From contig JBFWJG010000001.1 in the NCBI GenBank assembly GCA_050253335.1, positions 46,153-110,152 on the forward strand: a DNA stretch of 64,000 bases, in the 5' to 3' direction. This document shows positions 3,636 to 49,128 of this stretch, piece by piece. The DNA is from Deferribacterales bacterium. Lineage in GTDB: Bacteria; Chrysiogenota; Deferribacteres; Deferribacterales; Geovibrionaceae. The first letter of the stretch is position 1. Every line of letters starts with the position of its first letter. The position numbers and the translations under genes were made by a program. Under the pieces are notes generated by a model that was not told the origin of the DNA, did no database searches, and worked only from the letters and a program-made list of their open reading frames with translations.

Positions 3636-3897
3636 CATAAGCCCCGCGGGAGCAGGTTTTCTTCTTCCGCGGGCAGTTTGTTTATTTCGGCTTAAATCAG
3701 GTCTTTTTCTGTTGCCGTTTTTCACCGCCTCTATTATCTTAACGCTTGCGCGCGCATTTCGCGAGAATGTGGTTTTGCTGAAAATCATTCTCCGCTGTTC
3801 TGTGTGTCCTCCGTGCAGCCGGACCTTGTTTATCAGGGTGCGGGCGTGTATGGAAATTCTCATGGCTGAAGAATTTTTTTGTTAATGAAGGTGCATT

Positions 3898-5421
3898 ATG
3901 GCAGCAAGACTCATTTTACTGATACTCGACGGCTGGGGCTGCCGCGAAGATGAAAGAAACAACGCGGTTTCCCTGTCCCGTCCGGCTAATTTTCTGAAGC
4001 TGATGAAAACATGCCCCCACACCCTGCTTGATGCCAGCGAGGAGAGGGTCGGACTGCCCGCGGGGCAGATGGGCAACTCCGAGGTCGGGCACACCAACAT
4101 AGGCGCGGGACGCATAGTCTATCAGGATTTCCTGAAAATCAGCATGGATGTCCGCTCCGGCGAGATTGAAAAAAACACAAATATAAATACATTCTTTGAA
4201 GACACGCTCAAAGGTTCAGGCAGGCTGCACTTCTTCGGTCTGCTTTCAGACGGCGGAGTACACAGTCACATCGACCACCTGAAAGGTCTGGTGAAAATGG
4301 CGCAGGCAAAAGGTATTTCGCATATCTTCATCCACGCCTTCACCGACGGCAGGGACACCCCCCCTAAAAGCGGCATAGATTACGTCAGGGAGATTGAAGC
4401 ATTCCTTGAGGAAACCGGGGCAGGGCGGATCGCCACTGTCTGCGGCAGGTATTACGCCATGGACAGGGACAAAAGATGGGACAGAGTGGAAAAGGCTTAC
4501 AACATGCTCCGTCTGGGAGAGGGACGAAAGGTTCAGTCAGCTTCTCAGGCAGTGCTCGATTCCTACGCGGGCAGTGAGACGGACGAGTTCATTCAGCCCT
4601 CAGTCATTCAGGGTGTTGACGGAAAAGTGAAGGACGGGGATTTTGTCTTTTTCTATAACTTCCGTGCCGACAGAGCCAGAGAACTCTGCCTCGCCTTCAA
4701 TGACCGCAGCTTCGGCGGTTTTGCCCGCAAAGACCACCCGCATGTGAACTTCATGACCCTCACCAGATATGAGAAGAACTACACCTTCCCCGTGGCCTAT
4801 CCGCCGGAGGAGCTTAACGAGATATTCGGCGAGGTCATCAGCCGAGAAGGCTTAAAACAGCTCCGCATAGCCGAAACCGAGAAATACGCCCACGTGACGT
4901 ACTTCTTCAACGGCGGGCGGGAGACCGTTTTTGAGGGTGAGGAGCGCGAGCTTATTGAATCCCCCAAGGACGTGCCCACTTATGACAAAAAACCTGAGAT
5001 GAGCGTTTATAAAGTCGCTGAAAAATTCAGGGAAGTTTTCCTGAAAGGTGATGTTGACGTGGCTGTTATGAACTTCGCAAACCCCGACATGGTGGGGCAC
5101 ACCGGAGTTGAGGAAGCGGCGGTTAACGCCTGCCGCGCCGTGGATGAATGCCTGGGCGAAGTAATCCGCATCGCGGATGAAACAGGCGCGGTTCTTGCCG
5201 TTACGGCGGATCACGGCAACTGTGAGCAGATGTGGGATTATGAAAACGATCAGCCCCACACTGCACATACCTTGAATCCTGTGCCGTTTATAGTTTATAA
5301 TTATAAATGCGTACTTCAGAGCGAAAAAGGCAAGCTGGCGGACATTGCGCCGACCCTGCTTGACATCATGGGAATAAACCAGCCGGAAGCAATGACCGGA
5401 AAGTCGCTTCTGGTAAAATAA
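3898..5421 (+). CDS. gpmI: 2,3-bisphosphoglycerate-independent phosphoglycerate mutase
   Basis: ILDGWG, GQMGNSEVGH, DGRDT, AETEKYAHVT, NPDMVGHTG. Confidence 0.97.
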   Translation: MAARLILLILDGWGCREDERNNAVSLSRPANFLKLMKTCPHTLLDASEERVGLPAGQMGNSEVGHTNIGAGRIVYQDFLKISMDVRSGEIEKNTNINTFFEDTLKGSGRLHFFGLLSDGGVHSHIDHLKGLVKMAQAKGISHIFIHAFTDGRDTPPKSGIDYVREIEAFLEETGAGRIATVCGRYYAMDRDKRWDRVEKAYNMLRLGEGRKVQSASQAVLDSYAGSETDEFIQPSVIQGVDGKVKDGDFVFFYNFRADRARELCLAFNDRSFGGFARKDHPHVNFMTLTRYEKNYTFPVAYPPEELNEIFGEVISREGLKQLRIAETEKYAHVTYFFNGGRETVFEGEERELIESPKDVPTYDKKPEMSVYKVAEKFREVFLKGDVDVAVMNFANPDMVGHTGVEEAAVNACRAVDECLGEVIRIADETGAVLAVTADHGNCEQMWDYENDQPHTAHTLNPVPFIVYNYKCVLQSEKGKLADIAPTLLDIMGINQPEAMTGKSLLVK

Positions 5422-5446
5422 ATTTTTAAAGGGGGCGGGACAGAAT

Positions 5447-6109
5447 ATGTTTTCTGAAATTTTCCGCCCCGTTTGCGCCGCCTGCGGCGAGGACTCGCCG
5501 GAGGGTATTTTCTGCGCGGAATGCGGGGAAAGCCTGCGCCGCCTGAAGATGTTCTGCCGTACATGCGGACATCCGCTGAATGTTGACGCTCTGACGTGCG
5601 GTTTCTGCCCGTCAAGGCGCTATGACAGGCTTTTTACCGACTACCTCTATGCTCCGCCGGTTAAGGAACTGCTTAAAAAGATCAAGTTTGCTTACGGTGT
5701 GAGAGGTATTTTTCATCTTGGTGAACTGATTAGGCAGCCGGCGGAGATGTTTTCGGTGTATGATGTAATTACACCCGTGCCTTCGCACTACACACGGAAG
5801 CTTCGCAGGATAATGCATCCGGCGGATATTCTGGCGGCGCACATAGCCTCCGCGGCGGGAAAAAAAGCTGAAAGGCTCATAGTCCGCCGTAGAAAGACCG
5901 GCTATCAGTGGAAACTGAAAAAAAAGCAGAGAATAAGGAACGTAAGCGGAGCCTTCGCCCTTAACGGTGAATGTTCGGGAAAGAAAATCCTCATTGTTGA
6001 CGATATTTACACAACCGGTTCCACCGTCAACGAATGCGCAGGGGTTCTCAAAATAAACGGAGCGGAGCTTGTGGACGTATACGCCCTGAGCTGCACAGGA
6101 TATTATTAA
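5447..6109 (+). CDS. comF: ComF family amidophosphoribosyltransferase-like protein
   Basis: N-terminal CxxC pairs plus PRTase motif ILIVDDIYTTGST. Confidence 0.85.
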   Translation: MFSEIFRPVCAACGEDSPEGIFCAECGESLRRLKMFCRTCGHPLNVDALTCGFCPSRRYDRLFTDYLYAPPVKELLKKIKFAYGVRGIFHLGELIRQPAEMFSVYDVITPVPSHYTRKLRRIMHPADILAAHIASAAGKKAERLIVRRRKTGYQWKLKKKQRIRNVSGAFALNGECSGKKILIVDDIYTTGSTVNECAGVLKINGAELVDVYALSCTGYY

Positions 6110-6122
6110 TGGAGTTTTTCAG

Positions 6123-7772
6123 ATGAAGATGCTGGACATGCTCGCATCCAACCTTGCGGGGCTGGATTTTCCCATGTTTGCATATCTCCCGCGTACGGGG
6201 AAAATGTACCGCCTTGACGGGGGGAAAACATCGCCCATGCCTGTTCCCGAAACGATCAGGCCGGGGCTTGAGGATGAAACCAAGTCTGTTATATATTTCA
6301 GGAAGGGAGAGGAGATTATTGTCTTCTTCTTTTTCCGGATTGAGGCGGAAGGGAGTGAAATAATCCTCGTTATTCAGGACGGCAAAGGGGGGCAGCGTCC
6401 GGCAAGGGTGCTCTCTGTTTTTGCCTCTAAGGCGCTCACGGAGAAGCCGGTTCCCGCACCGGAGCCTGTTTTCAGGAATTACTCCGCGGATGATTCGCTC
6501 CGCCGCGAGCTTGAGCGGATGGTGGGCAGGGTCACCGAGCTTGAGATAAGCCTCACCGAGAAAGACGCCAGACTTATGGAGCTTCAGCGCAGGCTGTTTG
6601 TTCAGAACGAGCTTCTGGACAAGATGGAGAGCGCGGAAAGCAAGGATGAAGGGCGCCTTGAAGAGATAATGGAGCTGAAAGAGCAGATTGTGGCCAAAAA
6701 TGAGGAGATAGCAAGCCTCGAAGCGGAGATTCAGTCGCTCCAGATTGAGGCCGAATCCCTGAACGGCAAGCTCAGCAGCTATGACGATGTTCTTTCGGAT
6801 AATGATGTCAAGATACACGAGCTTGAGGCCGAGCTCGAAAATCAGGGCGAAGAACTGGCAAAAGCAGAAGATCTCAACGGCATTCTTAAAACCAGCCGAA
6901 ACAAGATAAGAAAGCTCATGGACGGACTGCCCATGCCGCTTTTCTCTGTGGATAAACACTATATTGTCAAAAACGTCAACCGTGCCGCCGGAGATTTTGC
7001 CGGAAACGGACCCCTCAACGAAATTGTCGGTCAGGAGTGCTACAAAGCTTTCTACGGATTTGACGCGCCCTGTTCGTGGTGCCACCTTTCGGATGCTCTG
7101 GAAGGGAAGGAAACCACGGAGCATATAGATGTGTATAAAAAGGACAAGCTTCTCAAGATAGAGCAGCAGATGTACCCTGTGCACAATAACGAAGGCGAAG
7201 TGGACGAGGCGGGCGAGCATCTCTTTGACATGACGGAGCAATATGAGCTGATAAACTCCCTTGAAACATACAGAGGGCAGATTAAGAAGTATAAAATGTC
7301 AAAGCTCAATGATATTAACGAGATAGAAGAACTTAAAAAAGAATATACCACCCTGAACGAAAGCTATGAGGAACTTCAGGCTAAGTTTCAGAAAATGCGC
7401 GTGACTCTGGAAAGGCTTCTCTCCGAAGATAAGATGAATGAGCTTCTGCGTACCAGAAACGAAAACGCCGAGCTGAGAAACAAGCTCACCCGTGCCGCCA
7501 GCGCACTCAGAAACTATCAGGTTAACCTTGACGACAGCAAAACCAGATACACCGAGCTGAATAAAAAGACGGTTTACCAGCTTGAGAGGCTGATAAACGT
7601 GCTCAATAACAAGGCAACCCTCAAACAGCCCGATATGGAACAGAGTCTCGCTTTCATCAACAGCGAGATTGCCCGCCTTAAACGTGATTATGATAAACTT
7701 TGTGGTGGAAAAACAGCCAAAACAAGTGTAAATGTTAGTGACGCCCCGGAAGGCGCGCCGGAAGCGGATTGA
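6123..7772 (+). CDS. long coiled-coil protein with central PAS domain
   Basis: E/L-rich heptads flank a PAS-like block (VNRAA...IVGQECYKAFYGFDAPCSWC). Confidence 0.6.
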   Translation: MKMLDMLASNLAGLDFPMFAYLPRTGKMYRLDGGKTSPMPVPETIRPGLEDETKSVIYFRKGEEIIVFFFFRIEAEGSEIILVIQDGKGGQRPARVLSVFASKALTEKPVPAPEPVFRNYSADDSLRRELERMVGRVTELEISLTEKDARLMELQRRLFVQNELLDKMESAESKDEGRLEEIMELKEQIVAKNEEIASLEAEIQSLQIEAESLNGKLSSYDDVLSDNDVKIHELEAELENQGEELAKAEDLNGILKTSRNKIRKLMDGLPMPLFSVDKHYIVKNVNRAAGDFAGNGPLNEIVGQECYKAFYGFDAPCSWCHLSDALEGKETTEHIDVYKKDKLLKIEQQMYPVHNNEGEVDEAGEHLFDMTEQYELINSLETYRGQIKKYKMSKLNDINEIEELKKEYTTLNESYEELQAKFQKMRVTLERLLSEDKMNELLRTRNENAELRNKLTRAASALRNYQVNLDDSKTRYTELNKKTVYQLERLINVLNNKATLKQPDMEQSLAFINSEIARLKRDYDKLCGGKTAKTSVNVSDAPEGAPEAD

Positions 7773-7895
7773 CAGTGTTTTTTCCAGAACGCTGTCTCGT
7801 TTTCGGGACGGGCAGAGTTTTATCCGTACAGGCGCACAGGGACGGTATGCTGACTCCGTTTAAGCGGAGTTTTTCAGTTTAATGTAAAAAATTAA

Positions 7896-8912
<1,017 letters not shown>

Positions 8913-8933
8913 TCCGGCAGCGGACAGAACGAA

Positions 8934-10103
8934 ATGGCTAAGAGCATAAAGGATCTTGAATTAAAAGGAAGAAGGCTGTTCATGAGGGTGGATTTCAACA
9001 TCCCCCTCAAAGACGGCGTGGTTCAGGACGATACGCGCATACGCGAGGCTTTGGAATCCATCAGGTACGCCAAGGACGCGGGGGCGAGGGTTATTCTCGC
9101 CTCCCATCTGGGCAGACCCAAAGGCGAGAGAAATCCGGCGTATTCCCTTGAACCTGTTGCGGAATATATCAGCAAGAACTACTTCCATGTGGATTTCATA
9201 GACGACTGCATCGGCGAAAAAGTGCAGCAGACGGTCGGCAGGATGCGCGACGGCGAGGTTCTGCTTCTGGAAAACCTGCGCTTTTATAAAGGCGAGGAGA
9301 AAAACCTCCCCGAGTTCACTGCTGAACTTGCGAAGCTTGCGGATGCTTATGTGAACGATGCCTTCGGCACATGCCACAGAAAGCACGCCTCCGTTTACGG
9401 ACTTCCCGAACTTGTTCAGGACAAGGCGGCCGGCTTCTTGGTTGAAAGAGAGATAAAATATTTCGAAAAGCTGCTGAAAAACGCCGACAGGCCATTCGCG
9501 GCTATCCTCGGCGGAGCTAAGGTTTCGGATAAGATAGGCGTTATCGAATCCCTGATCGAGCTTGCGGACAGAATCTTCATCGGCGGCGCCATGGCTTACA
9601 CTTTCCTTAAATTCAAGGGAATTAAGACGGGCATTTCCCTTGTCGAGTCGGATCAGGATGAAACTGTGGACAAAATCCTCAGAAAAGCGGCCGAGAAGGG
9701 AGTGCAGATATATCTTCCCGTTGATCATGTTGTTGCGCCTGAATTTAACTCATTATCAGGTATAATCACTGAGGGTGCGGACATAGCTGACGGAATGATG
9801 GGACTTGATATAGGCTCTAAAACTACTCAGTTGTACATCAAGGCGCTTGAGGAGTGCAGAACAGTGCTCTGGAACGGACCTATGGGCGTATTTGAGAAGG
9901 AGCAGTTCTCCAAGGGAACATTCTCGCTGGCGAGGGCTCTGGGCGACAGTGACGCTGTGGTTGTTGTAGGCGGGGGTGACTCTGTTTCCGCTGCCTGTCA
10001 GGCGGGCGTTGCGGACAAGCTGGCGCATATCTCCACCGGCGGCGGCGCTTCTCTGGAATATATAGAGTTCGGCAGACTGCCCGGAATCGAAATTTTAGGA
10101 TAA
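8934..10103 (+). CDS. pgk: phosphoglycerate kinase
   Basis: [31 protein letters not shown]. Confidence 0.98.
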
Positions 10104-10460: not shown

Positions 10461-10745
10461 TTACTTTCCGCCGCTGACCTTGGTTGATTTCTGATAGTTC
10501 GGAAGCGGTACGTCCTGTCCGTTTCTTTACACGCTCACGCCTTGCAGAGCAAGGCTTCGCTTCGCACGGCGCATTCCCATCCATGGGAGTGTTTACTTTC
10601 CGCCGCTGACCTTGCTTAATTTCTGATAGTTCAGAAACGGTACGTCCTGTCCGTTTCTTCACACGCTCGCGCCTTGCAGAGCAAGGCTTCGCTCCGCACG
10701 GCGCACTCCCATCCATGGGAGTGTTTATTTCCCGCCGCTGACCTT
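10461..10745. repeat. 132-bp tandem repeat (2 full copies plus start of a third; partial copy at ~10196-10232)
   Basis: Units start at 10461, 10593 and 10725; near-identical, with internal palindromes. Confidence 0.9.
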
Positions 10746-34528: not shown

Positions 34529-34560
34529 GAAAAAGGGCGGGATAAAAACCGCCCTTTTTC
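34529..34560 (-). terminator. terminator of the leftward repressor/cargo operon
   Basis: gaaaaagggcgg...ccgccctttttc. Confidence 0.8.
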
Positions 34561-34562
34561 AT

Positions 34563-35306
34563 TTAAATATTGTTCAAAAGTGTTATTGCGTTTTTGTCAT
34601 TCAAATCATACATTTTTTTCCACTCTGATAGCTGCCTAAAGCTAAGGGAAGGGAAACCTCTCAATATGTGTTCAACATCATATTCAAAATGGGCATATTT
34701 TTCTAAAAGTGCTTCCTGTGATGCCGAAAACATTTTTTCTTTTTTAGTTGCTATTAATGTGGTCATTAAAAGCTCGTTGTAAATCCAAGGAGAATATGTT
34801 GAGTAGTCATTTTCAACAGAGTTATCTGATTCAAGAAAAATAAAAACGGGTGTTTCCGAAATCATTTTAGTTAAAGCTGTAGACAAAATTATATTAATAT
34901 TATCTACACACCTTATTATTTGTTTTTTATTACTCATTGATCCAGTTAGTTCTTTAATCAAATTGTCTTTATATCCCCATACATCTGAATCAATAAATGT
35001 TGTTAAATCTAATTCTTTTGATAGCCAGTTTGAAAAATATTGTACTAAATCAACATCTGCATGGGAATGAGATAAAAAAATATCTGCATTTATTTGCGGA
35101 AACCAATCATTTTCAAGCCTAGCAACGTCAATCGTCTCATTTTTTAGAACATCGACCTTCCCTTTCAAATACTGCAAATATGGGCTATAGCTTCTTGTGC
35201 TTGCTTTTAGCCTTTTATCAAGTATTTCGCTAAATAAAAGATCTAGTCTTTTGGATGGTACAAACCTTTTAATTTCTGCTTCATTAATCTTAAACTTAAG
35301 GAACAT
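34563..35306 (-). CDS. TIR-domain protein (candidate antiphage)
   Basis: DIFLSHSHAD, FIDSDVW and SPWIYNEL (putative catalytic Glu) are TIR-like motifs; very AT-rich. Confidence 0.75.
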   Translation of the reverse strand: MFLKFKINEAEIKRFVPSKRLDLLFSEILDKRLKASTRSYSPYLQYLKGKVDVLKNETIDVARLENDWFPQINADIFLSHSHADVDLVQYFSNWLSKELDLTTFIDSDVWGYKDNLIKELTGSMSNKKQIIRCVDNINIILSTALTKMISETPVFIFLESDNSVENDYSTYSPWIYNELLMTTLIATKKEKMFSASQEALLEKYAHFEYDVEHILRGFPSLSFRQLSEWKKMYDLNDKNAITLLNNI

Positions 35307-36964: not shown

Positions 36965-37390
36965 CTACGAAGCAAGGCTTATCAAATTGCGTATTTTATC
37001 TTTGTCTATAGTTGATTTCTCACTATTCATTGCGTCCTGAAGCAGGAGCATTACTAGCTTACTTTTCTTATCAGGCTTCATATAGAGGTCATTTTTATCC
37101 AATATTTCTTCAACTGTCTCAATAATCACTCTGAGCTTGTTTTCGATATTTTGGAAACCATTTGCTACTGTCTTGTACTCTTCTTTTGTATTTCCATTGA
37201 TAATCCAATTTAAATCTTGGTCATGGCATACTGAGAATATTTTCTCATAATCAAGAGAATTTCTTTTTTTCCATGTTGAAACCGTATTGGGCTTGATTTC
37301 AAGTAGTTGAGCAAGCTCCACATCACTGTGTAACCCTTTTACTTTTTTCAAACGCTCAATAACTAAAGTGGCATTTTGCGATTTTTCCAT
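36965..37390 (-). CDS. phage CI-like HTH repressor
   Basis: IERLK...SDVELAQLLEIKPNTVSTWKKRNS...DLNWIING; divergent from the ner-like gene. Confidence 0.85.
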   Translation of the reverse strand: MEKSQNATLVIERLKKVKGLHSDVELAQLLEIKPNTVSTWKKRNSLDYEKIFSVCHDQDLNWIINGNTKEEYKTVANGFQNIENKLRVIIETVEEILDKNDLYMKPDKKSKLVMLLLQDAMNSEKSTIDKDKIRNLISLAS

Positions 37391-37419
37391 TTGACACATT
37401 CTCAATTTGCGATTATTAT
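37391..37419 (+). promoter_or_regulatory. sigma70 early promoter of the element with candidate operator
   Basis: TTGACA-17-TATTAT; tttgcgatt occurs twice nearby. Confidence 0.7.
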
Positions 37420-38751: not shown

Positions 38752-39276
38752 GTGCAAGGTACAGGTTTTAAATTAGATACGAGCGAGCTTGAAGATCTTT
38801 TCAAGGATCTGTTAGCGAAAATTGCAAATCCTAAACCTGCATTGCGTGATATAGGCGAAGCTCTTGTCTCTAGCACAGTCGAACGTCTGTATGATGGTGT
38901 CACACCTGAGGGGAAAAAGCAAACACCCGTTAAAAATCGTCCTGGTGAAACACCCCTATTGGATTCGACAGACTACTCAAGAGGCTTCAAATATGCAGTA
39001 GGTAAAGATTGGGTTGTTGTTGGCACGAATAAGCCGCAAGCCCGTCTGCTGCACAAAGGCGGTGTGCTTGAACCCAAAGTAATCAAATCCAAAGTAGGCA
39101 AAGACGGTAAGCGTAAGCCTTTAGCTTTTACCATAGGCGGTAAAAAAGTCTTTGCCCATAGTGTAAAAATTCCTGCGGTCACAATACCCGCTAGACCGCA
39201 CATAGGCATAAGTGAAGATGATAAGGAAGAGATAGCCTATCTTATAAGGCTTTACTTATCAGGAGCAGCAAAATGA
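38752..39276 (+). CDS. phage virion morphogenesis protein (Mu gpG / P2 gpS family)
   Basis: P.L..IGE.L..ST..R, VVVGTNKPQARLLHKGG, IPARPHIGISEDD. Confidence 0.85.
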   Translation: MQGTGFKLDTSELEDLFKDLLAKIANPKPALRDIGEALVSSTVERLYDGVTPEGKKQTPVKNRPGETPLLDSTDYSRGFKYAVGKDWVVVGTNKPQARLLHKGGVLEPKVIKSKVGKDGKRKPLAFTIGGKKVFAHSVKIPAVTIPARPHIGISEDDKEEIAYLIRLYLSGAAK

Positions 39277-40749: not shown

Positions 40750-42531
40750 ATGTCACCTGAAGCTCTGAATCACATAAAAACCTCTCTTGAGACCTGCGAA
40801 ACGCCTAAGGAACGCACCATCGAAGCCGCAAGGTTGAGTGAGTTCTACGGTATTTCTACCGCTTCATTTTGGAGATGGGCAAACAAGGCGGGTTTTCGGG
40901 TGCGTTCGGCACGCTCCGACAGGGGTAAAAGCGAGCTGACAGATGACGAGTTGAAGCTTATAGCCGCTAGAGTGCTTGTGGGCAAGCAGTTAAGGAACAA
41001 GTTTACCAACTCCGTTAAAAACGCCCTTGAGGAGCTTGCAAGAGAGGGGTTCACCTTCCCTGTGGGGTATGAACGTATATGCTCACTGCTTCGTGAAAAG
41101 GGGTACGACAAGGAGAGCTTGGCGACTATTCCGCCCCATGTAAGGCTTATCTCAAAGCACCCGAACGAGACATGGCAGTTTGATGTTACCAACTGCTTAC
41201 AGTGGCATTTGGACAAGAAAACAGGGCTTACAGAGCGTGATTTGGAGATGAATTTCTACAGCAACAAGGCTGTGAAGTTTCTTAAAACCATCAAAAGGGA
41301 GCTTCTCCGCTTCGTTATGGTTGACCATTGCACGGGTGCTTTTTTCTTCTGGTATTACTATGTTCCCGGCGAACGTGCAGAGGAAGGGGCGGACTTCTTT
41401 TATAAGGCTTTTGCTAGGAAAGACAGCCTCATACAGACCTATCTGAACTCTGAAACAGGCATGTACCAGATGCACGGAGTACCTTTCAGGCTTGTTTCCG
41501 ACAAGGGGTCAATCCTTAGGCATAAGTCTATTATCAACCTTATGGACGCTCTTGATGTGAAGATTGAGCTTCATGCCGCAGGCAACCCAAGGGCAAAAGG
41601 CAAGGTTGAACGCCTTATGCGCACCATAGGCACTAAGTTTGAAACAATCCTGAAAGTACGCCGACCTGTAGACCTTGCCGAGCTGAACCGATGGGCATTG
41701 GCATGGTGCATTAACCATAATCAGACCTTCGTGAGCAAAAAGAAGGAGCTTCCTGCCGCTGAATACTGGCTGAAGATAAGGCAGACAGAACTTAGGCTTT
41801 GCCCTCCCGAAGAGCTTTTTAAGACCCTTATACACAGGGCGGATTATGAAAGAACGGTTGACGGCAGTGGGCATATATCATTCCACGGACGGGAGTATTT
41901 TATCAAAGATGTCAACGCCGTACGCAAGAAGGTTAAGGTCACTATCAATGCCTATGAATACCCACTGATTGATATTCATTTTGACGGGCATGTATGGAAG
42001 ACCGCCCCTATAGGAACAGACGAATACGACAGGCTGATAAGCCCTGCAAACGTTGAATACGGCACTTACAGGGCATTACCCCATACCATCACGCAAAAGC
42101 ATATCAGCGAGCTTGAACAGGTGGCTATAGACAACTTTGGAGTCGGTTTTAAGGGTAATAAGCAGAAACGCCAGTCCATAGCCCCAGAACGAGGCAAAGA
42201 GAAGATTAAACCTATGGATAAGGTCATTCAGCCTGAGAAGGTTCACCATCTTCAGAAACAGGGCATTGAGCTTGTAACGCCTGATATCCATGCACCTTTG
42301 ACGGAAAAAGAGGAAAGGCACTACACCGTTACGCTTCTGTTTGACACTGGTGAAAAACGCCTTAGCACAACCGACTTGATACTCCGTATTGTTCGGGAGG
42401 TTCGTAAGCTCTCGGTTGAGGAAAATAAAGCGATAAAAGCACGTTGGAAGAACGGAGTAACAGCCACAGAGGCAGACCAAATTATACAGAACATGCTGGA
42501 GGTGACACATGCCGAGAGTAATTACAGCTAA
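40750..42531 (+). CDS. Mu-like DDE transposase
   Basis: PNETWQFD, VDHCTG, VSDKGS, GNPRAKGKVER integrase-core motifs. Confidence 0.9.
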   Translation: MSPEALNHIKTSLETCETPKERTIEAARLSEFYGISTASFWRWANKAGFRVRSARSDRGKSELTDDELKLIAARVLVGKQLRNKFTNSVKNALEELAREGFTFPVGYERICSLLREKGYDKESLATIPPHVRLISKHPNETWQFDVTNCLQWHLDKKTGLTERDLEMNFYSNKAVKFLKTIKRELLRFVMVDHCTGAFFFWYYYVPGERAEEGADFFYKAFARKDSLIQTYLNSETGMYQMHGVPFRLVSDKGSILRHKSIINLMDALDVKIELHAAGNPRAKGKVERLMRTIGTKFETILKVRRPVDLAELNRWALAWCINHNQTFVSKKKELPAAEYWLKIRQTELRLCPPEELFKTLIHRADYERTVDGSGHISFHGREYFIKDVNAVRKKVKVTINAYEYPLIDIHFDGHVWKTAPIGTDEYDRLISPANVEYGTYRALPHTITQKHISELEQVAIDNFGVGFKGNKQKRQSIAPERGKEKIKPMDKVIQPEKVHHLQKQGIELVTPDIHAPLTEKEERHYTVTLLFDTGEKRLSTTDLILRIVREVRKLSVEENKAIKARWKNGVTATEADQIIQNMLEVTHAESNYS

Positions 42532-43714
42532 TGCACGGGAAATCAACCTAAAACGGATAATACAGGCTGCACGTATGACGCAGGAAGGTTTCCGTACCAT
42601 GTTGGCAGAGGAAGCGCAGATAGATATAGCGCAGTCAAGCTTCAAGCTGCTTCTGCAAAAAGGGATTATCCCTAAATGGATAGATAAGAAGCAGGTTGAA
42701 GGCTTTGTCATGACAAGGCTGCCTTTCGTTATGCAGTCACAGGAACTGACAGCCCCGCAGATATGGGATTATGCGGAGCAGGAACAGGGTAAAAGGTTCG
42801 TGTTTGAAGCAAGCGAAGACGATTATGCCAAAAAGTTAAAAACATACATGGAGATTACTATGCTTAGATTGGATACAATGAGGCATTTCAAACTGGCTCA
42901 GAACCCTTTCATTTTGGATATACGCAGAGAGAGCGAGATATTCATGGGTTCATCTCATCAATTCGCCTTTGAAGTGATGAAACAGACGGCGGAAACAGGC
43001 GGGTTTGCCGTTATCACGGGTGAAGTCGGAGCGGGTAAATCAACCGTTCGCCGCAAGTTTTTTGAGGACTCAAGGCAGAATAAGATTTGCCAGATTATTT
43101 ACCCTGAATCAATCGACAAATCACGTTTGACTGCTAAGGACGTTCTGTATTCCATCATCTACGACCTGACCGAAGCCAAGCCGCAGGGCAATAAAGAAGC
43201 CCTAAGCAGGCAGGCAAAGGCACTGCTGCTTGCCAGAAGCAACAACAATGAGCGTACGGTTCTGGTTATCGAAGAGGCTCACGACCTGCCTGTTACCACC
43301 TTGAAGTTTCTTAAGCGCATATGGGAGCTTGAAAACGGTTTACAGAGGCTTTTAGGCATTATTCTCATAGGTCAGAATGAGCTTGAGACAAGGCTTTACG
43401 GACGAAACAGTACGGAGATAAGGGAAGTGACCGCAAGAACCGCTCATGCAAGGGTTGAAGCTCTCGGCAAGGAAATGCCTTCTTACATAGCTCACAAGTT
43501 CAAATGCGCTAAGGCAGATGTGAACAGGATTATTTCACCTGAAGCACTTAAGCTTTTGGTTGACTGTATGAAGATAACCGACCGTATGGGCAAAGAAAAA
43601 TCAATGGGGTATCCGCTCTTTGTGAGCAATGTGATGATAAGGCTTATGAACTACGCAGCAGAAGCGGGGGAAGAGCTTATAACCCCTGAAATAATAGAGA
43701 CGGTAGGAGTTTAG
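42509..43714 (+). CDS. MuB/ExeA-like AAA ATPase with N-terminal extension
   Basis: NPF, GEVGAGKST, VIEEAH, ILIGQNEL. Confidence 0.9.
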   Translation: MPRVITANAREINLKRIIQAARMTQEGFRTMLAEEAQIDIAQSSFKLLLQKGIIPKWIDKKQVEGFVMTRLPFVMQSQELTAPQIWDYAEQEQGKRFVFEASEDDYAKKLKTYMEITMLRLDTMRHFKLAQNPFILDIRRESEIFMGSSHQFAFEVMKQTAETGGFAVITGEVGAGKSTVRRKFFEDSRQNKICQIIYPESIDKSRLTAKDVLYSIIYDLTEAKPQGNKEALSRQAKALLLARSNNNERTVLVIEEAHDLPVTTLKFLKRIWELENGLQRLLGIILIGQNELETRLYGRNSTEIREVTARTAHARVEALGKEMPSYIAHKFKCAKADVNRIISPEALKLLVDCMKITDRMGKEKSMGYPLFVSNVMIRLMNYAAEAGEELITPEIIETVGV

Positions 43715-43715
43715 C

Positions 43716-44081
43716 ATGGAAAGAGTAGGCATATTTATTATCAGGTATGACGGGCGTTTTATGGTTATGCCTGACGGTACGGGAACGTTAAGAGGCTTTT
43801 TAGAAGAAGGGGAGACCCCAACCGATGCGGCAGTCAGAGTTTTGGCGAACTCTGCCCCATGCGGCTACACAGGCTCTCCCGTGTTTGTTATATCCGAAAA
43901 AACAGAGGTTGCGAAGGATTATCTGTTTGCCGTCCGTGCGGCAAAGCATGACGGCAGATTTTTGAGCCACAAAGAACCTACGGATATGGTTCAGTGCTTA
44001 GCTTGGACTTCTCTGCGTCAGGCTGAAAAGAAAGAAAAATATGTAAAGAAACAAATAGCTGATAAGGCGGTGAACTCATGA
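43716..44081 (+). CDS. hypothetical protein with degenerate Nudix-like box
   Basis: GFLEEGETPTDAAVRVL lacks the REUxEE glutamates. Confidence 0.5.
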   Translation: MERVGIFIIRYDGRFMVMPDGTGTLRGFLEEGETPTDAAVRVLANSAPCGYTGSPVFVISEKTEVAKDYLFAVRAAKHDGRFLSHKEPTDMVQCLAWTSLRQAEKKEKYVKKQIADKAVNS

Positions 44082-44284
44082 GCTACACACATAACATGAC
44101 AAACGCAGAACGGCTTAGAGAGCTGGCTAAACTAAGCAGCACGGTTGGTGAGTTTCAGGACAAAGCCATATCGGGCGTAATGCTGAAAATGACTTTATCA
44201 GAGTTTGAAACAGAGCTGGAAACCATGAAGGTAGGGGATCTGCACGACTACTTTGAAAAGGTCAAAAACGGAGATGGAAAATGA
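44078..44284 (+). CDS. hypothetical phage protein
   Basis: Coupled ATGA overlaps at both ends. Confidence 0.55.
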   Translation: MSYTHNMTNAERLRELAKLSSTVGEFQDKAISGVMLKMTLSEFETELETMKVGDLHDYFEKVKNGDGK

Positions 44285-44766
44285 CCATACAAAACTGGAA
44301 CGATGTTGATAAGGCACTCCGCCTTATCGGTGAAAAAGAAATAGCACTGGCAAATATAGACGGCGATATGACGCTTAAAATAAACGCTGTGAAAGAGGAC
44401 GCAAAACAAGCAGCCGAAACCATAGCCATAGAGAAAAAGGAGCTTGAAAAGGCTGTAGAGGGCTTTTGTGAGGCGAATAAGGCTGAGTTTGCCCTTAAAC
44501 GCAGCAAAGAACTTACTTTCGGTGAGATAGGTTACAGGCTGGTTAAGTCCGTATCCATTCCAAGAGTTAAAACTAAGCTTGAATCACTCATAAAGAGCTT
44601 AAAGGTTTTCGGGCTTTCCGACTGCATTACATACACCGAAGCAGTGGACAAGGACAAGCTTACGGAATTGAAAGATGAAGACCTTGTAAAGCTCGGTTTA
44701 AAGCGCACCGTCAAGGATTCGTTCCGTATCAAAACCAACATTGAGAAGGTTAAGGAAGTCGGTTGA
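44281..44766 (+). CDS. gam: Mu Gam-like host-nuclease inhibitor
   Basis: WNDVDKALRLIG...FCEANK...KELTFGEIGYR...VDKDKL. Confidence 0.85.
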   Translation: MTIQNWNDVDKALRLIGEKEIALANIDGDMTLKINAVKEDAKQAAETIAIEKKELEKAVEGFCEANKAEFALKRSKELTFGEIGYRLVKSVSIPRVKTKLESLIKSLKVFGLSDCITYTEAVDKDKLTELKDEDLVKLGLKRTVKDSFRIKTNIEKVKEVG

Positions 44767-44797
44767 ACCCCAAGTACCAATTTAGCAGGAGATAGCT

Positions 44798-45085
44798 ATG
44801 AACACGAAAAGTCAGACGGTTTTCAATCAAAGCTTCCAAGAGGTTGTAGAGGTTGTGGGTATGGAAGGGGCGATAAAGCTTTGTGAAGTCTTTGGTGGGC
44901 TTGAAATATACATTCCAAAAATGGACTACCTAAAACGCTTGGAGAGGAACAGAGCTATAGTTGACGCTTATGACGGTACTCAAGCTTCTATTGCCCTGCT
45001 TGCTAAAGAATACCAGCTTTCTTCAAACCAAATCAGAGTGATTTTGAGAGGAAGGAAGACACGAAATAAGGAGATTGAAGCATGA
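44798..45085 (+). CDS. mor: Mor/C family transcription activator
   Basis: GAIKLCEVFGGLEIYIPK...RNRAI...LAKEYQLSSNQIRVIL. Confidence 0.88.
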   Translation: MNTKSQTVFNQSFQEVVEVVGMEGAIKLCEVFGGLEIYIPKMDYLKRLERNRAIVDAYDGTQASIALLAKEYQLSSNQIRVILRGRKTRNKEIEA

Positions 45086-45600
45086 GCAATAGGAAATATT
45101 ACACTCTTACGGGAGAAAGTCTTAAAAAGGTTAAAGTATTTGTTGATGAGCTTCAGGCAGTCTTTAAGAAAAGGAATGAGTACATGAAAATAAACAATTT
45201 CGCAGGACTCACGCATGGCGGTGGAGTTGTTAGCGGAGTGATTTTGAAGGAACAATCTGACGATAAAAAGTGGCGAAAAAGAAAAAAGGCTTCGCAGTAC
45301 GGATACGCTCATTACCCATCAAACACAAAAGAAGGCAAAAAGATTTCAGGTGAGCTAAGCAGACTTAGAGGAAAGGATATGATGGCTTTCAGCGATGAAT
45401 TTAACCTGCCTTTAGCGTTTACAATGGAAGGCTTATACACATCGGCAGTTCATCTTGTAGGCGAAAACATTATTTTGACTGTTCCAGAGCCAGAAGAAAT
45501 TAAGCCTGAACACCCTTTTTTCAAAGACGCTACCCTGCTTAAGCTAAGCGAGTATTACGCACTCAAAGAGCAGGTGCTAGAAGCCGAAACGCCCCGCTAG
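45082..45600 (+). CDS. hypothetical phage protein
   Basis: Coupled to mor; YPSNTKEGKKI; its 3' end overlaps a hammerhead ribozyme. Confidence 0.65.
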   Translation: MSNRKYYTLTGESLKKVKVFVDELQAVFKKRNEYMKINNFAGLTHGGGVVSGVILKEQSDDKKWRKRKKASQYGYAHYPSNTKEGKKISGELSRLRGKDMMAFSDEFNLPLAFTMEGLYTSAVHLVGENIILTVPEPEEIKPEHPFFKDATLLKLSEYYALKEQVLEAETPR

Positions 45601-45645
45601 GGGTGTCTGGTGGGAGTAACCGCCCATCACTGACGAGGCAGGTTA
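45583..45645 (+). ncRNA. type II hammerhead ribozyme #1
   Basis: gcc-GAAAC-gcccc(gcta)ggggt-GTC^-tggtggg(agtaaccg)cccatca-CTGACGA-ggc; loop taacc can pair with ggtta at 45641-45645. Confidence 0.88.
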
Positions 45646-45656
45646 AGGAGTTATCC

Positions 45657-45818
45657 ATGTGGAAATATATTGTTGGCTGGTTCATCGTGAACACTGTTTT
45701 TGCTATCTACGAAGAAATCGTATATGGCAAAGCTTTCGTACATATTTTTGACATTCTTAATGTGCTTTTTTGGGGTGGTTTGTATCTCCTTGAACTTTTC
45801 GGAGGAGCATATGAATAG
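45657..45818 (+). CDS. small two-TM protein
   Basis: AAGGAG RBS, MWKYIVGWFIV... Confidence 0.55.
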   Translation: MWKYIVGWFIVNTVFAIYEEIVYGKAFVHIFDILNVLFWGGLYLLELFGGAYE

Positions 45819-46371
45819 GGTAACGGCAAAGCAGGTTCAGCTGATTCATATAGCCAAAAAGCAGCTTGAAATATGCGATGACGATTACCGCAGTATTTTG
45901 AATGAATACTTCAAAGTTAGGAGTTCTAAAGACCTTACGGAACGTCAGGCTGAAAGACTGATTACTCATTTCAGGCAAAAAGGTTTCCGTATAAACACCG
46001 CCAAGAAAGCCAAGCCTACAGGCTCTACTATTATCGCTTTCCCTACATCATTTCAGCTTGAGCTTATAGAGGTTTTAAAAAGCAATATCGTATGGAAAGC
46101 AGGATTTGAGGGGTTTCAGCTTTGGCTTGAAAAGCGAATGAGGATTAAGAAAATTCGCACAAAGCAAGAGGCGGCAAAAGTCATTGAAGGCTTGAAAGCC
46201 ATGCTTGGGATTGATGCCGAGATAATCAAAATGAAATCGCTGCCTTTCCCTATATGCCTTGATGAAGCCTACTTTATAGATAACTTCACGGGTGAGGTTC
46301 TGCCCTTCAGGTGGGTTTATGACATTGAAAAAAGAAAGCTTATCAGAATTGAAAACTCTATATGGAGATAA
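45811..46371 (+). CDS. gemA: GemA / Mu gp16 (DUF1018) regulatory protein
   Basis: QLIHIAKKQL..DDDYRSIL...SSKDLT..QA..LI..F..GF; KVIEGLKAM. Confidence 0.85.
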   Translation: MNRVTAKQVQLIHIAKKQLEICDDDYRSILNEYFKVRSSKDLTERQAERLITHFRQKGFRINTAKKAKPTGSTIIAFPTSFQLELIEVLKSNIVWKAGFEGFQLWLEKRMRIKKIRTKQEAAKVIEGLKAMLGIDAEIIKMKSLPFPICLDEAYFIDNFTGEVLPFRWVYDIEKRKLIRIENSIWR

Positions 46372-46373
46372 AT

Positions 46374-46562
46374 ATGAGAATAACTTGTACTGCACAGATT
46401 CGCCCTTACTGCTTTTTTGGAACGGGGAAGTGCTGCCTTGCTTGTCCGTTAAACCAGAAGTGCCGCGAAGAAAATAAAAAGAAAGGTTGTAAGCTTATAC
46501 CTTGCGGTGATGAACACGCCGAATCTTTAAAAGAGTGTGGATTCTGCTCCATTGAGAAGTAA
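46374..46562 (+). CDS. small Cys-rich protein (10 Cys)
   Basis: GGAG RBS; MRITCTAQIRPYC...CCLAC...CGFC. Confidence 0.5.
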   Translation: MRITCTAQIRPYCFFGTGKCCLACPLNQKCREENKKKGCKLIPCGDEHAESLKECGFCSIEK

Positions 46563-46601
46563 GTGAAGATCTTAACAAAATTATATAAAAAGGAGATTAA
46601 A

Positions 46602-47069
46602 ATGAAAAACTGGGAAGACGTTTCAGCCGGAATAAGCAGGCTGACCGCAATTAAGCACGAAAAAAAGCAATTAAAAATCACAGCCGGAAGAGTGGCGGAC
46701 AGTGTTATTAACGAACTTGTCAAAAGAAGAGACGATGAAATCAACGCAATCAGAATGAAGTACGCTGAACTTATTCCGCAGGAACAGGCAAAAACGATAA
46801 AAGAGATCTCTTCCAAAAAAGACAAGCTCAATGAAGAAGCTTTTGAGCTTGAAGAATCTATAAAAGATTACGTGCTTCAAAGCAAGGAAACAAAGGAGAT
46901 AAAAGAGCTAATCGAACAGCCATACAAAAGAGATGACAATTCACCGTATGAGTTTAATAAGACCTTCAGAGAGGGGAGTATATACTATCGGAACAACCTT
47001 CCTTTCACCATACCTCCGTCATATTCAAGAAGTGAAGAGATTCAGATTATATTGAATTGTGATAGGTGA
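46602..47069 (+). CDS. second, divergent Gam-like coiled-coil protein
   Basis: MKNWEDVSAGISRL resembles Gam IQNWNDVDKALRL; KTFREGSIYYR resembles KELTFGEIGYR. Confidence 0.55.
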   Translation: MKNWEDVSAGISRLTAIKHEKKQLKITAGRVADSVINELVKRRDDEINAIRMKYAELIPQEQAKTIKEISSKKDKLNEEAFELEESIKDYVLQSKETKEIKELIEQPYKRDDNSPYEFNKTFREGSIYYRNNLPFTIPPSYSRSEEIQIILNCDR

Positions 47070-47073
47070 ATCA

Positions 47074-47676
47074 ATGGCTTGGGATAAAATAGCACGAACA
47101 GGCTCTTTTACTGATATGAACGGAAATACATACACCTTCACCGATGATATTCTCAAACGTTTGGTGCGTTCTTTCAAAACTGGTTCAGAAAAAGTACCCC
47201 TTGTCTTAGGTCACCCTGAAACAGACTATCCTGCACATGGTTGGATAAAAGATTTAAGAGTAAATAACGGCTTTCTTGAAGCTCAATATGAAAACCTCTC
47301 TGAAGAGTTGAAAAGACTCGTACAGGAAGGACGGTTTAAATATAAAAGTATCTCCGTTAATGGCGGTCTGACCAAGTTGAAGCACTTAGGCATACTAGGT
47401 GCGGTTGCACCTGCTATGAGCGGCTTAGGGAGCATTCAGTTTAATAAATATGATAACGGCATTGTGATGTACTTTGCTGAAAAGGTCATGGAGGGAAATA
47501 TGACATTAGAAGAATTAGGTAAAATGGTTGAGCAACAGCAAGACGAAATCGAAAAATGCAGAAGGGACATTGACGCACTTATGAAGGCAATCGCCGCAGG
47601 CGGTACTTCATCGTCTAGCTTCGCAAGTTCCAGTCACTACGGTGTATCAGGGCAGAAAATGGCAAGTAAGCTTTAA
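47074..47676 (+). CDS. Mu-like prohead protease (gpI-like) with short C-terminal scaffold
   Basis: IARTG.FTD, PLVLGHP..PAHGWI, GRFKYKSIS, LKHLGILGAVAPAM.GL. Confidence 0.85.
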   Translation: MAWDKIARTGSFTDMNGNTYTFTDDILKRLVRSFKTGSEKVPLVLGHPETDYPAHGWIKDLRVNNGFLEAQYENLSEELKRLVQEGRFKYKSISVNGGLTKLKHLGILGAVAPAMSGLGSIQFNKYDNGIVMYFAEKVMEGNMTLEELGKMVEQQQDEIEKCRRDIDALMKAIAAGGTSSSSFASSSHYGVSGQKMASKL

Positions 47677-47681
47677 CCTGA

Positions 47682-47735
47682 AGCCGAAACAGGGGAAAGC
47701 CCCCTGTCTGCAACTAAGCTTGTACTGATGAGGCT
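47682..47735 (+). ncRNA. type II hammerhead ribozyme #2
   Basis: agcc-GAAAC-agggg(aaagc)cccct-GTC^-tgcaa(ctaagc)ttgta-CTGATGA-ggct. Confidence 0.88.
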
Positions 47736-47819
47736 GCGGTAAAAAATTTAAAAACGACCCGCAAAAAATTACAAAAAACACACATCTTCAAAAAATTCAA
47801 AAAAAATCCTGAAAACCAA

Positions 47820-47920
47820 TCAAAACAGTTTTGACATTTAACACAAAAGGAGCGGAGTGTAAGACACCTGTTAAGAGATTTTTCTAAATTATCTCATCAT
47901 TAGCGGGTTCTTATCTTACA
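47820..47920 (-). repeat. right-end motifs of the Mu-like element
   Basis: Reverse complement reads TGTAAGATAAgaacccgctaatgatgAGATAAttt...tgtcaaaactgttttga. Confidence 0.7.
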
Positions 47921-47941
47921 CCCCGTCACCTTTTTGTTTGT

Positions 47942-48742
47942 TTATTTTACAGAAAAGCCCACTACGGCTTCGGGGGTGATCACTCTGAATGTGAATGATT
48001 CCGTAAGGAACAGGTGCACCTTTTCGGAATCGTGGTTGTGGTAGCCAACTGCAAAATCCTGCCCTATTGTGAGTTCAAGGTCGCCTTCCCTGTCAGCGAC
48101 GAGGAGAGCACCGTCAACCGCTTCCGAATAGACAACGGAACCTTTGATCTGCTGTTTGATCAGGTCTCCCAGTGTTCCGCCGGGGAAGAGCCGTGCGAGG
48201 TATTTCCACAGAGCGGGATTGACAACGAGATTTGCGCCGCCTGTAATCCCTTCCTTCATCATGCGTGTCTGAGCTTCGCTCACAGCGTCCACTATGCTGT
48301 CCTTGTCCAGAGTCATTGCAATTTTTGACTTGGCAGTAAGCTGGTTCAAGCCCACAATGCCGCTGTCCTTAAAACCGTTGAAAACAGCATTTTCCTCGAA
48401 TGCAGCAAGCTTTCTGGCCGCTTCGGTGAGGGGCTCCAGCTCAAGGTCTTTTGCGCCTCTGTCTATGTTGTCCAGCTCCCATATATCAAGGGAGAAATTG
48501 ACTCTCGCCTCAACAAGAGGAAGTATTTTGTGTACACCGAAGCATACCTCTCCTGCTTTCTGCTTAGCGGGCAGAGCAAGGCGCCCGAGGCTGACTGAAG
48601 TGTAATCTATGCCGTAAGGGCCTTCAACATCCGCAAACTTTCTGGCTGAAAGGTTAGCGGACAGGGTTTCTTTAGCGAGTGTGTTTATTTCTTTCCATGC
48701 TGCTGCGCTTATCGGTGCGAAATCTTTTCTGAGCAGATTCAT
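47942..48742 (-). CDS. family 1 encapsulin shell (Linocin M18-like)
   Basis: MNLLRKDFAPIS..AW, SARKFADVEGPYG, ELDNIDRGA, LTIGQDFAVGY, ESFTFRV. Confidence 0.95.
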   Translation of the reverse strand: MNLLRKDFAPISAAAWKEINTLAKETLSANLSARKFADVEGPYGIDYTSVSLGRLALPAKQKAGEVCFGVHKILPLVEARVNFSLDIWELDNIDRGAKDLELEPLTEAARKLAAFEENAVFNGFKDSGIVGLNQLTAKSKIAMTLDKDSIVDAVSEAQTRMMKEGITGGANLVVNPALWKYLARLFPGGTLGDLIKQQIKGSVVYSEAVDGALLVADREGDLELTIGQDFAVGYHNHDSEKVHLFLTESFTFRVITPEAVVGFSVK

Positions 48743-48756
48743 ATATTCCTCCTTGG

Positions 48757-49128
48757 TTATTTTTTCTTCAGGCTGCCGATTCCGAGCCCGCCGCTTTCGC
48801 CTGCCGCCGGTTCCGCGCCTTCGGCGGAAGCGCCTGAAAGAAATTCGTCTTCCACTTCTTTATATCCCTGCTGATAAAACTCTTCCTCCTGAGGATCAAG
48901 CTCCTTGAGCAGACGGAGAAATTCTCCGGCGTGCACCTTCTCCTCGTCGGCTATATCCATAAGAACCGCCTGAGCCAGCTTGTTGTCGGTGGATTCGGCA
49001 AGCTGCTGATAAAGCTGGATAGCTTCATATTCTGCCGCAACCATGAAACGGATGGCTCTGACAAGTTCCTGGTCTGTAAGTTTCCGGTCGTGTTTCAAAC
49101 CGCTGAAGGGATTTCCAAAATCGGGCAT
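48757..49128 (-). CDS. encapsulin cargo, ferritin-like/rubrerythrin-like protein
   Basis: EYEAIQLY..DIADEEKVHAGE; C-terminal cargo-loading peptide GGLGIGSLKKK. Confidence 0.92.
   Translation of the reverse strand: MPDFGNPFSGLKHDRKLTDQELVRAIRFMVAAEYEAIQLYQQLAESTDNKLAQAVLMDIADEEKVHAGEFLRLLKELDPQEEEFYQQGYKEVEDEFLSGASAEGAEPAAGESGGLGIGSLKKK

Follow-up and report, generated by a model that had tools for sequence, protein, structure and literature searches.

The question raised by this locus is whether an RNA motif lying between two genes of a Mu-like element cuts the element's messenger RNA, and what such a cut would do for the genes that follow it. The locus is part of a 64-kb window, the whole stretch of DNA analysed here (64,000 nucleotides (nt) from a Deferribacterales bacterium). 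The element is a mini-Mu of ~13.5 kb with a + strand operon of ~10 kb, which reads Ner-like, A, B, Gam, Mor, p172, ribozyme, TM53, GemA, p66, p168, protease-N. The motif between p172 and TM53, here ribozyme 1, has the form of a type II hammerhead. We consider it fairly likely that this ribozyme is catalytically competent, and that it would split the operon mRNA and uncouple the distal block of genes from those upstream.

The match of ribozyme 1 to a type II hammerhead is far beyond chance. The sequence-only reading of this DNA had proposed a covariance-model check with Rfam Hammerhead_II (RF02276), and this model matches 45582-45647 at 52.8 bits, above its gathering score of 37 (E 5e-8 for the whole window), with its structure line aligned end to end (positions 1-66 of 66). 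Hammerhead_II is the only Rfam family above threshold in the window, and ribozyme 1 is the only hammerhead above the Rfam threshold in the 2.58-Mb genome. Two weaker Rfam matches in the window, isrK (43897-43970, E 0.4) and Atu_C9 (34532-34630, E 0.48), were taken as chance matches. A second covariance model (R1), trained on 92 hammerheads from other genomes and from viral contigs and on no sequence of the window, scores ribozyme 1 at 54.1 bits (E ~1e-12). R1 models 12 base pairs (bp) only, and its sequences were chosen by the pattern GCCGAAAC..GTC..CTGANGAGGC, so that primary sequence is rewarded. A descriptor comprising the core motifs, a stem II of at least 2 bp and stems III and I of at least 4 bp gave 15 matches in 300 dinucleotide shuffles of the window (0.05 chance matches per window), and both stems reached 5 bp in one of these 15.

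The helices follow the type II order (II-III-I-II), with stem II open and stems III and I closed by loops. GAAAC spans 45586-90, and the core contains the A15.1-U16.1 pair (A45589-U45606) and the H17 residue (C45607; any base but G) that a type II core requires. The stem III hairpin is present in both the minimum free energy (MFE) fold and the centroid fold. All five pairs of the pseudoknot between loop I and the 3' tail are canonical, with a duplex energy of -5.3 kcal/mol. An alignment of 45 related hammerheads (that of the window, one each from two other genomes of the class, G004 and G005, and 42 viral copies chosen from the 92 for a long loop I) has 84.3% paired cells and a covariation score of 0.508, versus 0.153 in shuffles and at most 0.195 in slid-partner controls. 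Pairing is complete in the stem II columns (4-68, 5-67 and 6-66; 100%), and changes on both sides were identified in four of the five pseudoknot pairs, a count biased upward because the tails of the 42 viral copies were known at selection. The coordinates of core, stems, triplet and pseudoknot in the sequence-only reading are all correct when checked against 45580-45660. Its identification of a type II hammerhead whose loop I/3'-tail pseudoknot abuts the next ribosome-binding site (RBS) is upheld by RF02276, R1 and the covariation. Judged by its sequence, the segment is thus confirmed as a type II hammerhead and a typical member of its class.

Table 1. Parts of ribozyme 1, the second hammerhead, and genes of the mini-Mu element, in coordinates of the window (ORF, open reading frame; aa, amino acids; HTH, helix-turn-helix).
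Feature	Position	Strand	Basis or remark
Type II hammerhead ribozyme 1, whole Rfam match including pseudoknot tail	45582-45647	+	RF02276 and model R1
Stem II 5' strand GCC; partner GGC 45637-45639 (3 bp)	45583-45585	+	canonical pairs
Core G12 A13 A14 A15.1 (GAAA)	45586-45589	+	invariant columns, alignments A3 and A4
Stem III hairpin, 7 pairs 45589-95/45600-06 (one G-U), loop GCUA 45596-99	45589-45606	+	
GUC cleavage triplet; predicted scission after C45607	45605-45607	+	position 17 of core in Rfam alignment
Stem I hairpin, 7 pairs 45608-14/45623-29 (one G-U), 8-nt loop AGUAACCG	45608-45629	+	
Core C3 U4 G5 A6 N7 G8 A9 (CUGACGA)	45630-45636	+	sequence and Rfam
Pseudoknot 3' strand GGUUA; partner UAACC 45617-45621 in loop I	45641-45645	+	5 canonical pairs
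Shine-Dalgarno AAGGAG of 53-aa ORF; first A is last pseudoknot base	45645-45650	+	6 nt before ATG 45657
Hammerhead 2, core-perfect	47683-47734	+	descriptor and R1; 7 nt after protease ORF stop
CI-type repressor	36965-37405	opposite to operon	
Ner-like HTH, first in + strand gene run after repressor		+	
Mu G / tail-completion-like gene	38752-39276	+	Phage_tail_S, E 4.5e-19
HTH gene and 332-aa ORF (p332), between Mu G-like gene and A		+	
DDE transposase A	40750-42531	+	Pfam/PHROG
AAA+ B	42509-43714	+	Pfam/PHROG
Gam	44281-44766	+	Pfam/PHROG
Mor	44798-45085	+	Pfam/PHROG
p172, upstream 172-aa ORF, function not assigned	45082-45600	+	start overlaps mor stop
TM53, 53-aa hydrophobic ORF, first gene after cut	45657-45818	+	ATG 45657
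GemA-like gene	45811-46371	+	PF06252, E 2.5e-15
p66, 66-aa Cys-rich ORF	46362-46562	+	no Pfam/PHROG family
p168, 168-aa ORF	46563-47069	+	no Pfam/PHROG family
205-aa ORF, N-terminal part of Mu-type head maturation protease	47059-47676	+	phrog_976

Ribozyme 1 shares its core, topology, loop I/tail pseudoknot and placement between prophage genes with the prophage type II hammerheads of RF02276 described in PMC3088659, which are often paired or arrayed around short gene blocks, as in the window. Nothing essential differs from the class as presented in the consulted portion of that paper; the minor differences are the stop codon in loop III and the Deferribacterales host. Cleavage by hammerheads of this class, an internal transesterification 3' of position 17, is reported in vitro and in vivo, and the pseudoknot (at least 4 bp in this subclass) is described as needed for fast cleavage at ~0.5 mM Mg2+ (PMC3088659). 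According to the same source, prophage transcripts of ~2 kb with several hammerheads were cut at every ribozyme in vitro, and in one case in E. coli. Three type II hammerheads of Desulfovibrio vulgaris are reported to cleave in vivo by cyPhyRNA-seq (PMC8782182). They belong to the same Rfam class and lie near phage-like genes, although the organism and the loci differ from those studied here, and they provide a direct precedent for the activity of chromosomal prophage copies in cells. The predicted splitting of the polycistron follows from the family membership of ribozyme 1 and the published cleavage of other prophage type II hammerheads.

A second hammerhead follows the last gene of the block on the same strand, ~194 nt from the right end of the element. 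Its parts are GCC, GAAAC, a 7-bp stem III, GUC (predicted cut after C47708), CUGAUGA and GGC, with a stem I of 5 bp closed by the loop CUAAGC, and it lacks a 3'-tail pseudoknot. The MFE fold recovers all three stems, and 11 nt (GAAGCCGAAAC) are identical between the two hammerheads. R1 scores hammerhead 2 at 43.4 bits (E ~9e-10), and the two are the only R1 matches in the window up to E 10. Because R1 rewards selected primary sequence, this score is good evidence for the core of hammerhead 2, not for its activity. A search with Rfam of 47600-47850 (251 nt, E<=10) reported no hammerhead, likely due to the short stem I and the absent tail pseudoknot. As the Rfam model misses a core-perfect hammerhead that lacks the pseudoknot, counts of such pairs are too low. 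The palindrome AAGCUU in stem I/loop I of hammerhead 2 (47716-21) recurs in its 5' flank (47668-73), and pairing between the two is possible.

The operon thus contains a same-strand hammerhead pair that brackets genes, with the caveat that the second member fails the Rfam model. The predicted cut sites are 2101 nt apart (U45608-C47708), with five ORFs between them. Such a pair could in principle excise the U45608-C47708 segment, whose ends might then be joined by RtcB or by the reverse reaction to give a circular or otherwise special RNA. An RtcB homologue is encoded in the genome as an open frame of 523 aa (PF01139 stretches of 179.9 and 83.5 bits), and circular or spliced products are raised as a possibility in PMC3088659. 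However, RtcB is common, being present in 10 of 14 control genomes, the sequence offers no means of bringing the two ends together, and hammerhead 2, lacking a tertiary contact, may be slow. In the consulted portion of PMC3088659, moreover, no such product was detectable. We regard circularization as very improbable.

Linear release of a distal mRNA, the outcome that we favour, presupposes that ribozyme 1 is transcribed together with its neighbours. Given the tight packing of genes on the + strand, the lack of any terminator-like site on that strand in 44000-48000, and promoter-like sites in the same interval that are no more frequent than in shuffled sequence or by chance, the ribozyme is most simply placed within one long transcript. 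Gene calls with Pfam and PHROG agree with the earlier placement of ribozyme 1 in a tightly packed + strand operon, upstream of a block comprising TM53, GemA, p66, p168 and the protease remnant. The label 'Gam2' given earlier to p168 does not hold, as no Pfam or PHROG family was found for this protein and BLASTP against the element's Gam gives E 1.1. No family in Pfam or PHROG was identified for p172 (the Atlas gave no usable match) or for TM53. The last six codons of p172 and its stop lie inside ribozyme 1, with the TAG (45598-45600) formed by the last two bases of loop III and the first 3' base of stem III.

We predict that, once the polymerase has passed ~45645, stems I, II and III would fold and five pairs would lock loop I to the 3' tail, and that the RNA would then cut itself after C45607. 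In the upstream fragment the p172 stop would survive, and the stem III hairpin and a 2',3'-cyclic phosphate would cap the 3' end, 7 nt beyond this stop. The other product would open with a 5'-hydroxyl at U45608, which itself belongs to the stem I hairpin and pseudoknot region, and would next carry CUGACGA and the 3' strand of stem II, followed by AAGGAG and the ATG. The distal five-gene block would become a separate mRNA with a constant 5' end, whatever lies upstream, and this end would be poorly recognised by RNases that depend on the 5' end. A fixed and poorly recognised end of this kind would uncouple the stability and translation of the distal block from those of the transposition genes. 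Together with hammerhead 2, the block would be released as a defined RNA of 2101 nt.

RiboJ, an engineered part derived from a type III hammerhead of a plant satellite RNA, is not a relative of the window's copy and yet offers a functional analogy. In RiboJ, cleavage just upstream of the RBS leaves a 5'-hydroxyl and a hairpin, strips away the upstream context and raises expression (PMC6206723). The synthetic hammerhead insulator placed before an RBS in E. coli is reported to increase protein 2- to 10-fold and transcript ~2-fold (PMC6206723). By this analogy the distal block should gain expression that is independent of context and probably more stable, and we hypothesize that ribozyme 1 controls translation or stability downstream. 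The GGAG (45647-50) of the Shine-Dalgarno (SD) sequence is unpaired in the ribozyme fold, and thus a switch in which cleavage unmasks the RBS is not indicated.

Two related genomes show the same arrangement of ribozyme and SD. Hammerhead_II matches (E<=1e-4) were identified in 3 of 65 genomes of the class (phylum Deferribacterota). One (G004, 63.6 bits) lies in a different short Mu-like element. This reads A, B, 70 aa, DUF3164, GemA, 70 aa, 90 aa, ribozyme, 84 aa, HNH, Mor, and its proteins are 27-61% identical to those of the window (A 27%, B 34%, GemA 37%). The architecture of this ribozyme is the same, with every helix rewritten compensatorily: stem III is GCUCC/GGAGC, stem I is UGUGGAGA/UCUCCGCA, and the pseudoknot UGGUC/GACCA replaces UAACC/GGUUA. 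AAGGAGA and an ATG follow directly. The other (G005, same genus, 43 bits; L007 7560-7660 on the - strand of contig C44) belongs to a different phage type and lies upstream of a 206-aa ORF, DUF6148, a portal gene and an S49 protease gene. It begins ~8 nt after a promoter-like TTGACT-17-TATATT (one such site found versus 1.1 expected by chance), a weak hint that this ribozyme would trim a 5' leader rather than part cistrons. A strong SD lies directly 3' of the ribozyme in all three cases from the class.

Viral hammerheads of the same subtype provide a larger sample. A scan of viral contigs for the pattern GCC..GAAAC..GTC..CTGANGAGGC gave at least 134 loci, and 147 unique copies with 60-nt flanks are among the matches listed, to which all counts of viral copies given here refer. 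An SD and start codon lie within 50 nt downstream of 105 of the 147; as controls, the same combination occurs in the upstream 50 nt of 17 of 147, and shuffled sequences give 22.8 on average (34 at most). An ORF of at least 50 codons ends just before stem II in 108 copies and overlaps its first bases in 11, and 15 have no such ORF ending at the ribozyme. A loop I/tail helix of at least 4 bp was identified in 54 of the 137 copies that could be parsed, and of at least 5 bp in 28. The only minority trait of the window's copy is the stop codon in loop III. No match at any of the viral hammerhead loci listed was found by tblastn with 13 proteins of the element, and Pfam, run on 150 of the 310 ORFs that flank the viral hammerheads, assigned any family to 11, with GemA, Mor and Gam absent among them.

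The SD position bears on a reading in which the ribozyme cleaves, with a main effect that is negative or upstream: cleavage would limit the distal block, or would alter the life of the transposase, Gam and Mor mRNA via its new 3' end. In the MFE fold of the 3' product, codons further downstream pair with the SD region, a hint that release may bring no gain in translation. Against this, the strong SD directly after the ribozyme (in the 105 viral copies and in three of three from the Deferribacteres class) suggests selection for translation, and RiboJ raises expression (PMC6206723). We therefore hold a negative or upstream effect to be unlikely, and prefer cleavage that benefits the distal block.

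Two further features were noted among the viral copies. At least nine type II hammerheads are arrayed on the viral contig IMGVR_UViG_3300038412_000035 (L034/L035/L036, 792-10057), about one per small ORF. In 17 of the 147 copies, stem II is followed by six bases exactly complementary to the core CUGANG, and the base opposite N7 covaries (12 C/G, 5 U/A, none mismatched). Some of these loci (e.g., L030, L076, L080, L108, L119, L124, L133 and L139) carry CUGACGAGGC-CGUCAG, and L038, L072, L110 and L122 carry a second form, CUGAUGAGGC-CAUCAG. Pairing of this complement with the core would lock the catalytic strand in a hairpin, which might serve as an off-state or be adopted after cleavage.

Bacterial hammerhead and twister ribozymes are reported to be most strongly associated with the genes of Mu-like phages (PMC10085705, citing Roth 2014 and Weinberg 2015). 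A tblastn search with the GemA of the element matched 199 phage records, 167 of them of Pseudomonas phages, and we examined five diverse GemA-matching phages (PhiKM, vB_E274, HS6, RS138 and MP22). Rfam type II hammerheads were identified in RS138 and MP22. Ralstonia phage RS138 (NC_029107.1; L155) has two identical copies (9987-10053 and 10670-10736, 68.5 bits each) that precede ORF20 and ORF22, with gemA as ORF24. Pseudomonas phage MP22 (DQ873690.1; L156) has one (8315-8386, 66.2 bits) between orf16 and orf17, with the GemA-like gene as orf18. These hammerheads sit in unannotated gaps of the early region, where the records carry no RNA feature. As in the window, these type II hammerheads come after A and B in the early operon, with one to three small ORFs before gemA. 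The phage copies differ in the sequences of their stems and have a GC/GC stem II, and both phages are complete, whereas the window's element is a mini-Mu of ~13.5 kb with a second hammerhead at its right end. The layout of hammerhead, small ORF(s) and gemA thus recurs in three distant Mu-like lineages, those of Pseudomonas, Ralstonia and Deferribacterales. The kind of hammerhead, the pseudoknot, the pairing around gene blocks and the association with Mu-like phages are all already published.

Several points weigh against an active role for ribozyme 1. By folding energy alone the segment does not stand out (z -0.73), and other pairing is preferred to stem I in the MFE fold, although even without the pseudoknot (-5.3 kcal/mol) the hammerhead fold (-28.4 kcal/mol) comes within 0.5 kcal/mol of that optimum. 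To finish p172, ribosomes must open the 5' half of the ribozyme, which could slow or prevent folding. As ribosomes at the stop (45598-600) would cover this half, folding would have to occur ahead of or between them. A stop inside the ribozyme is also a minority layout, found in 13 of the 147 viral copies listed. The predicted effects on stability and translation are extrapolated from synthetic biology in E. coli, and may not carry over to the RNases of a Deferribacterales host. Finally, R1 and Rfam found no hammerhead in PhiKM, vB_E274 or HS6, and neither the descriptor nor R1 found one in a paralogous mini-Mu of the same genome (contig C9, L151 ~3800-10000, - strand). The lack of a hammerhead in this paralogue and in three of the five Mu-like phages sampled implies that the ribozyme is dispensable for such elements.

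The C9 paralogue shares the right-end sequence and has the order Gam, GemA, Mor, end. The identity of its proteins to those of the window is 66% for p332, 75% for A, 69% for B, 83% for Gam and ~70% for GemA. Its GemA was matched by tblastn in two pieces, suggesting a frameshift. The ribozymes travel with variable accessory modules, and the backbone of the element does not need them.

The same observations could mean that ribozyme 1 is an inherited but idle copy, intact in sequence and silent in vivo (e.g., since translation of p172 blocks its folding), with no role in a defective or satellite-like element. The position of the stop, the hammerhead-free paralogue and the loss of most virion genes from the element (as judged with Pfam and PHROG) are all compatible with this. 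However, decay would be expected first at core or pseudoknot positions, and ribozyme 1 has a perfect core, two unbroken 7-bp stems and all 5 bp of the pseudoknot. On the same strand, 2.1 kb away, is another hammerhead with a perfect core, and the chance rate for the descriptor is just 0.05 matches per window. We consider an idle copy quite unlikely, and retain the reading of a competent ribozyme that would part the operon mRNA.

The early operon of the element is Mu-like, as repressor, Ner-like, A, B, Gam, Mor and GemA genes were identified via Pfam/PHROG matches. The 205-aa ORF matches phrog_976 (E 3e-34) over profile positions 30-178 of 415. The Mu G/tail-completion-like gene lies upstream of the transposase in the early region, an odd site for a gene of virion morphogenesis. 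Few relatives were detected by alignment: GemA aligned at one locus in genome contigs (the G004 element), and p332 at one locus in viral contigs (L143, which has no hammerhead) and on one 1.5-kb fragment in metagenome contigs. A blastn search of 44281-47676 against the phage collection gave a single 106-nt match, in Gam. Comparison with the C9 paralogue places the right end of the element near 47928. Just outside it, a host encapsulin (Linocin_M18, E 2.5e-82) and a ferritin-like/rubrerythrin cargo gene are encoded on the - strand (47942-49128). These genes are convergent with the operon of the element, and read-through from it would be antisense to them.

Taken alone, the ribozyme has little weight, being one more well-formed type II hammerhead, real but ordinary. 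The locus has a modest value as a compact test case, since the mini-Mu carries exactly two hammerheads around five genes and the genome also contains a natural paralogue free of hammerheads. It lends itself to asking what prophage hammerheads are for, as the biological purpose of the class is called unknown in the consulted part of a review (PMC6765202). A more speculative proposal, which we think has a small though not negligible chance of being right, is that the two ribozymes provide transcript boundaries independent of the insertion site for a mini-Mu that inserts at random and has no recognisable terminator. If so, ribozyme 1 would give the distal block, with GemA and the remnant of the capsid protease, a fixed and protected 5' end, and hammerhead 2 would free the mRNA of the element from read-through into host DNA, here antisense to the encapsulin operon. 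Ribozymes would then replace promoters and terminators in a transposable phage satellite, and this could explain the published, unexplained enrichment of self-cleaving ribozymes in Mu-like phages.

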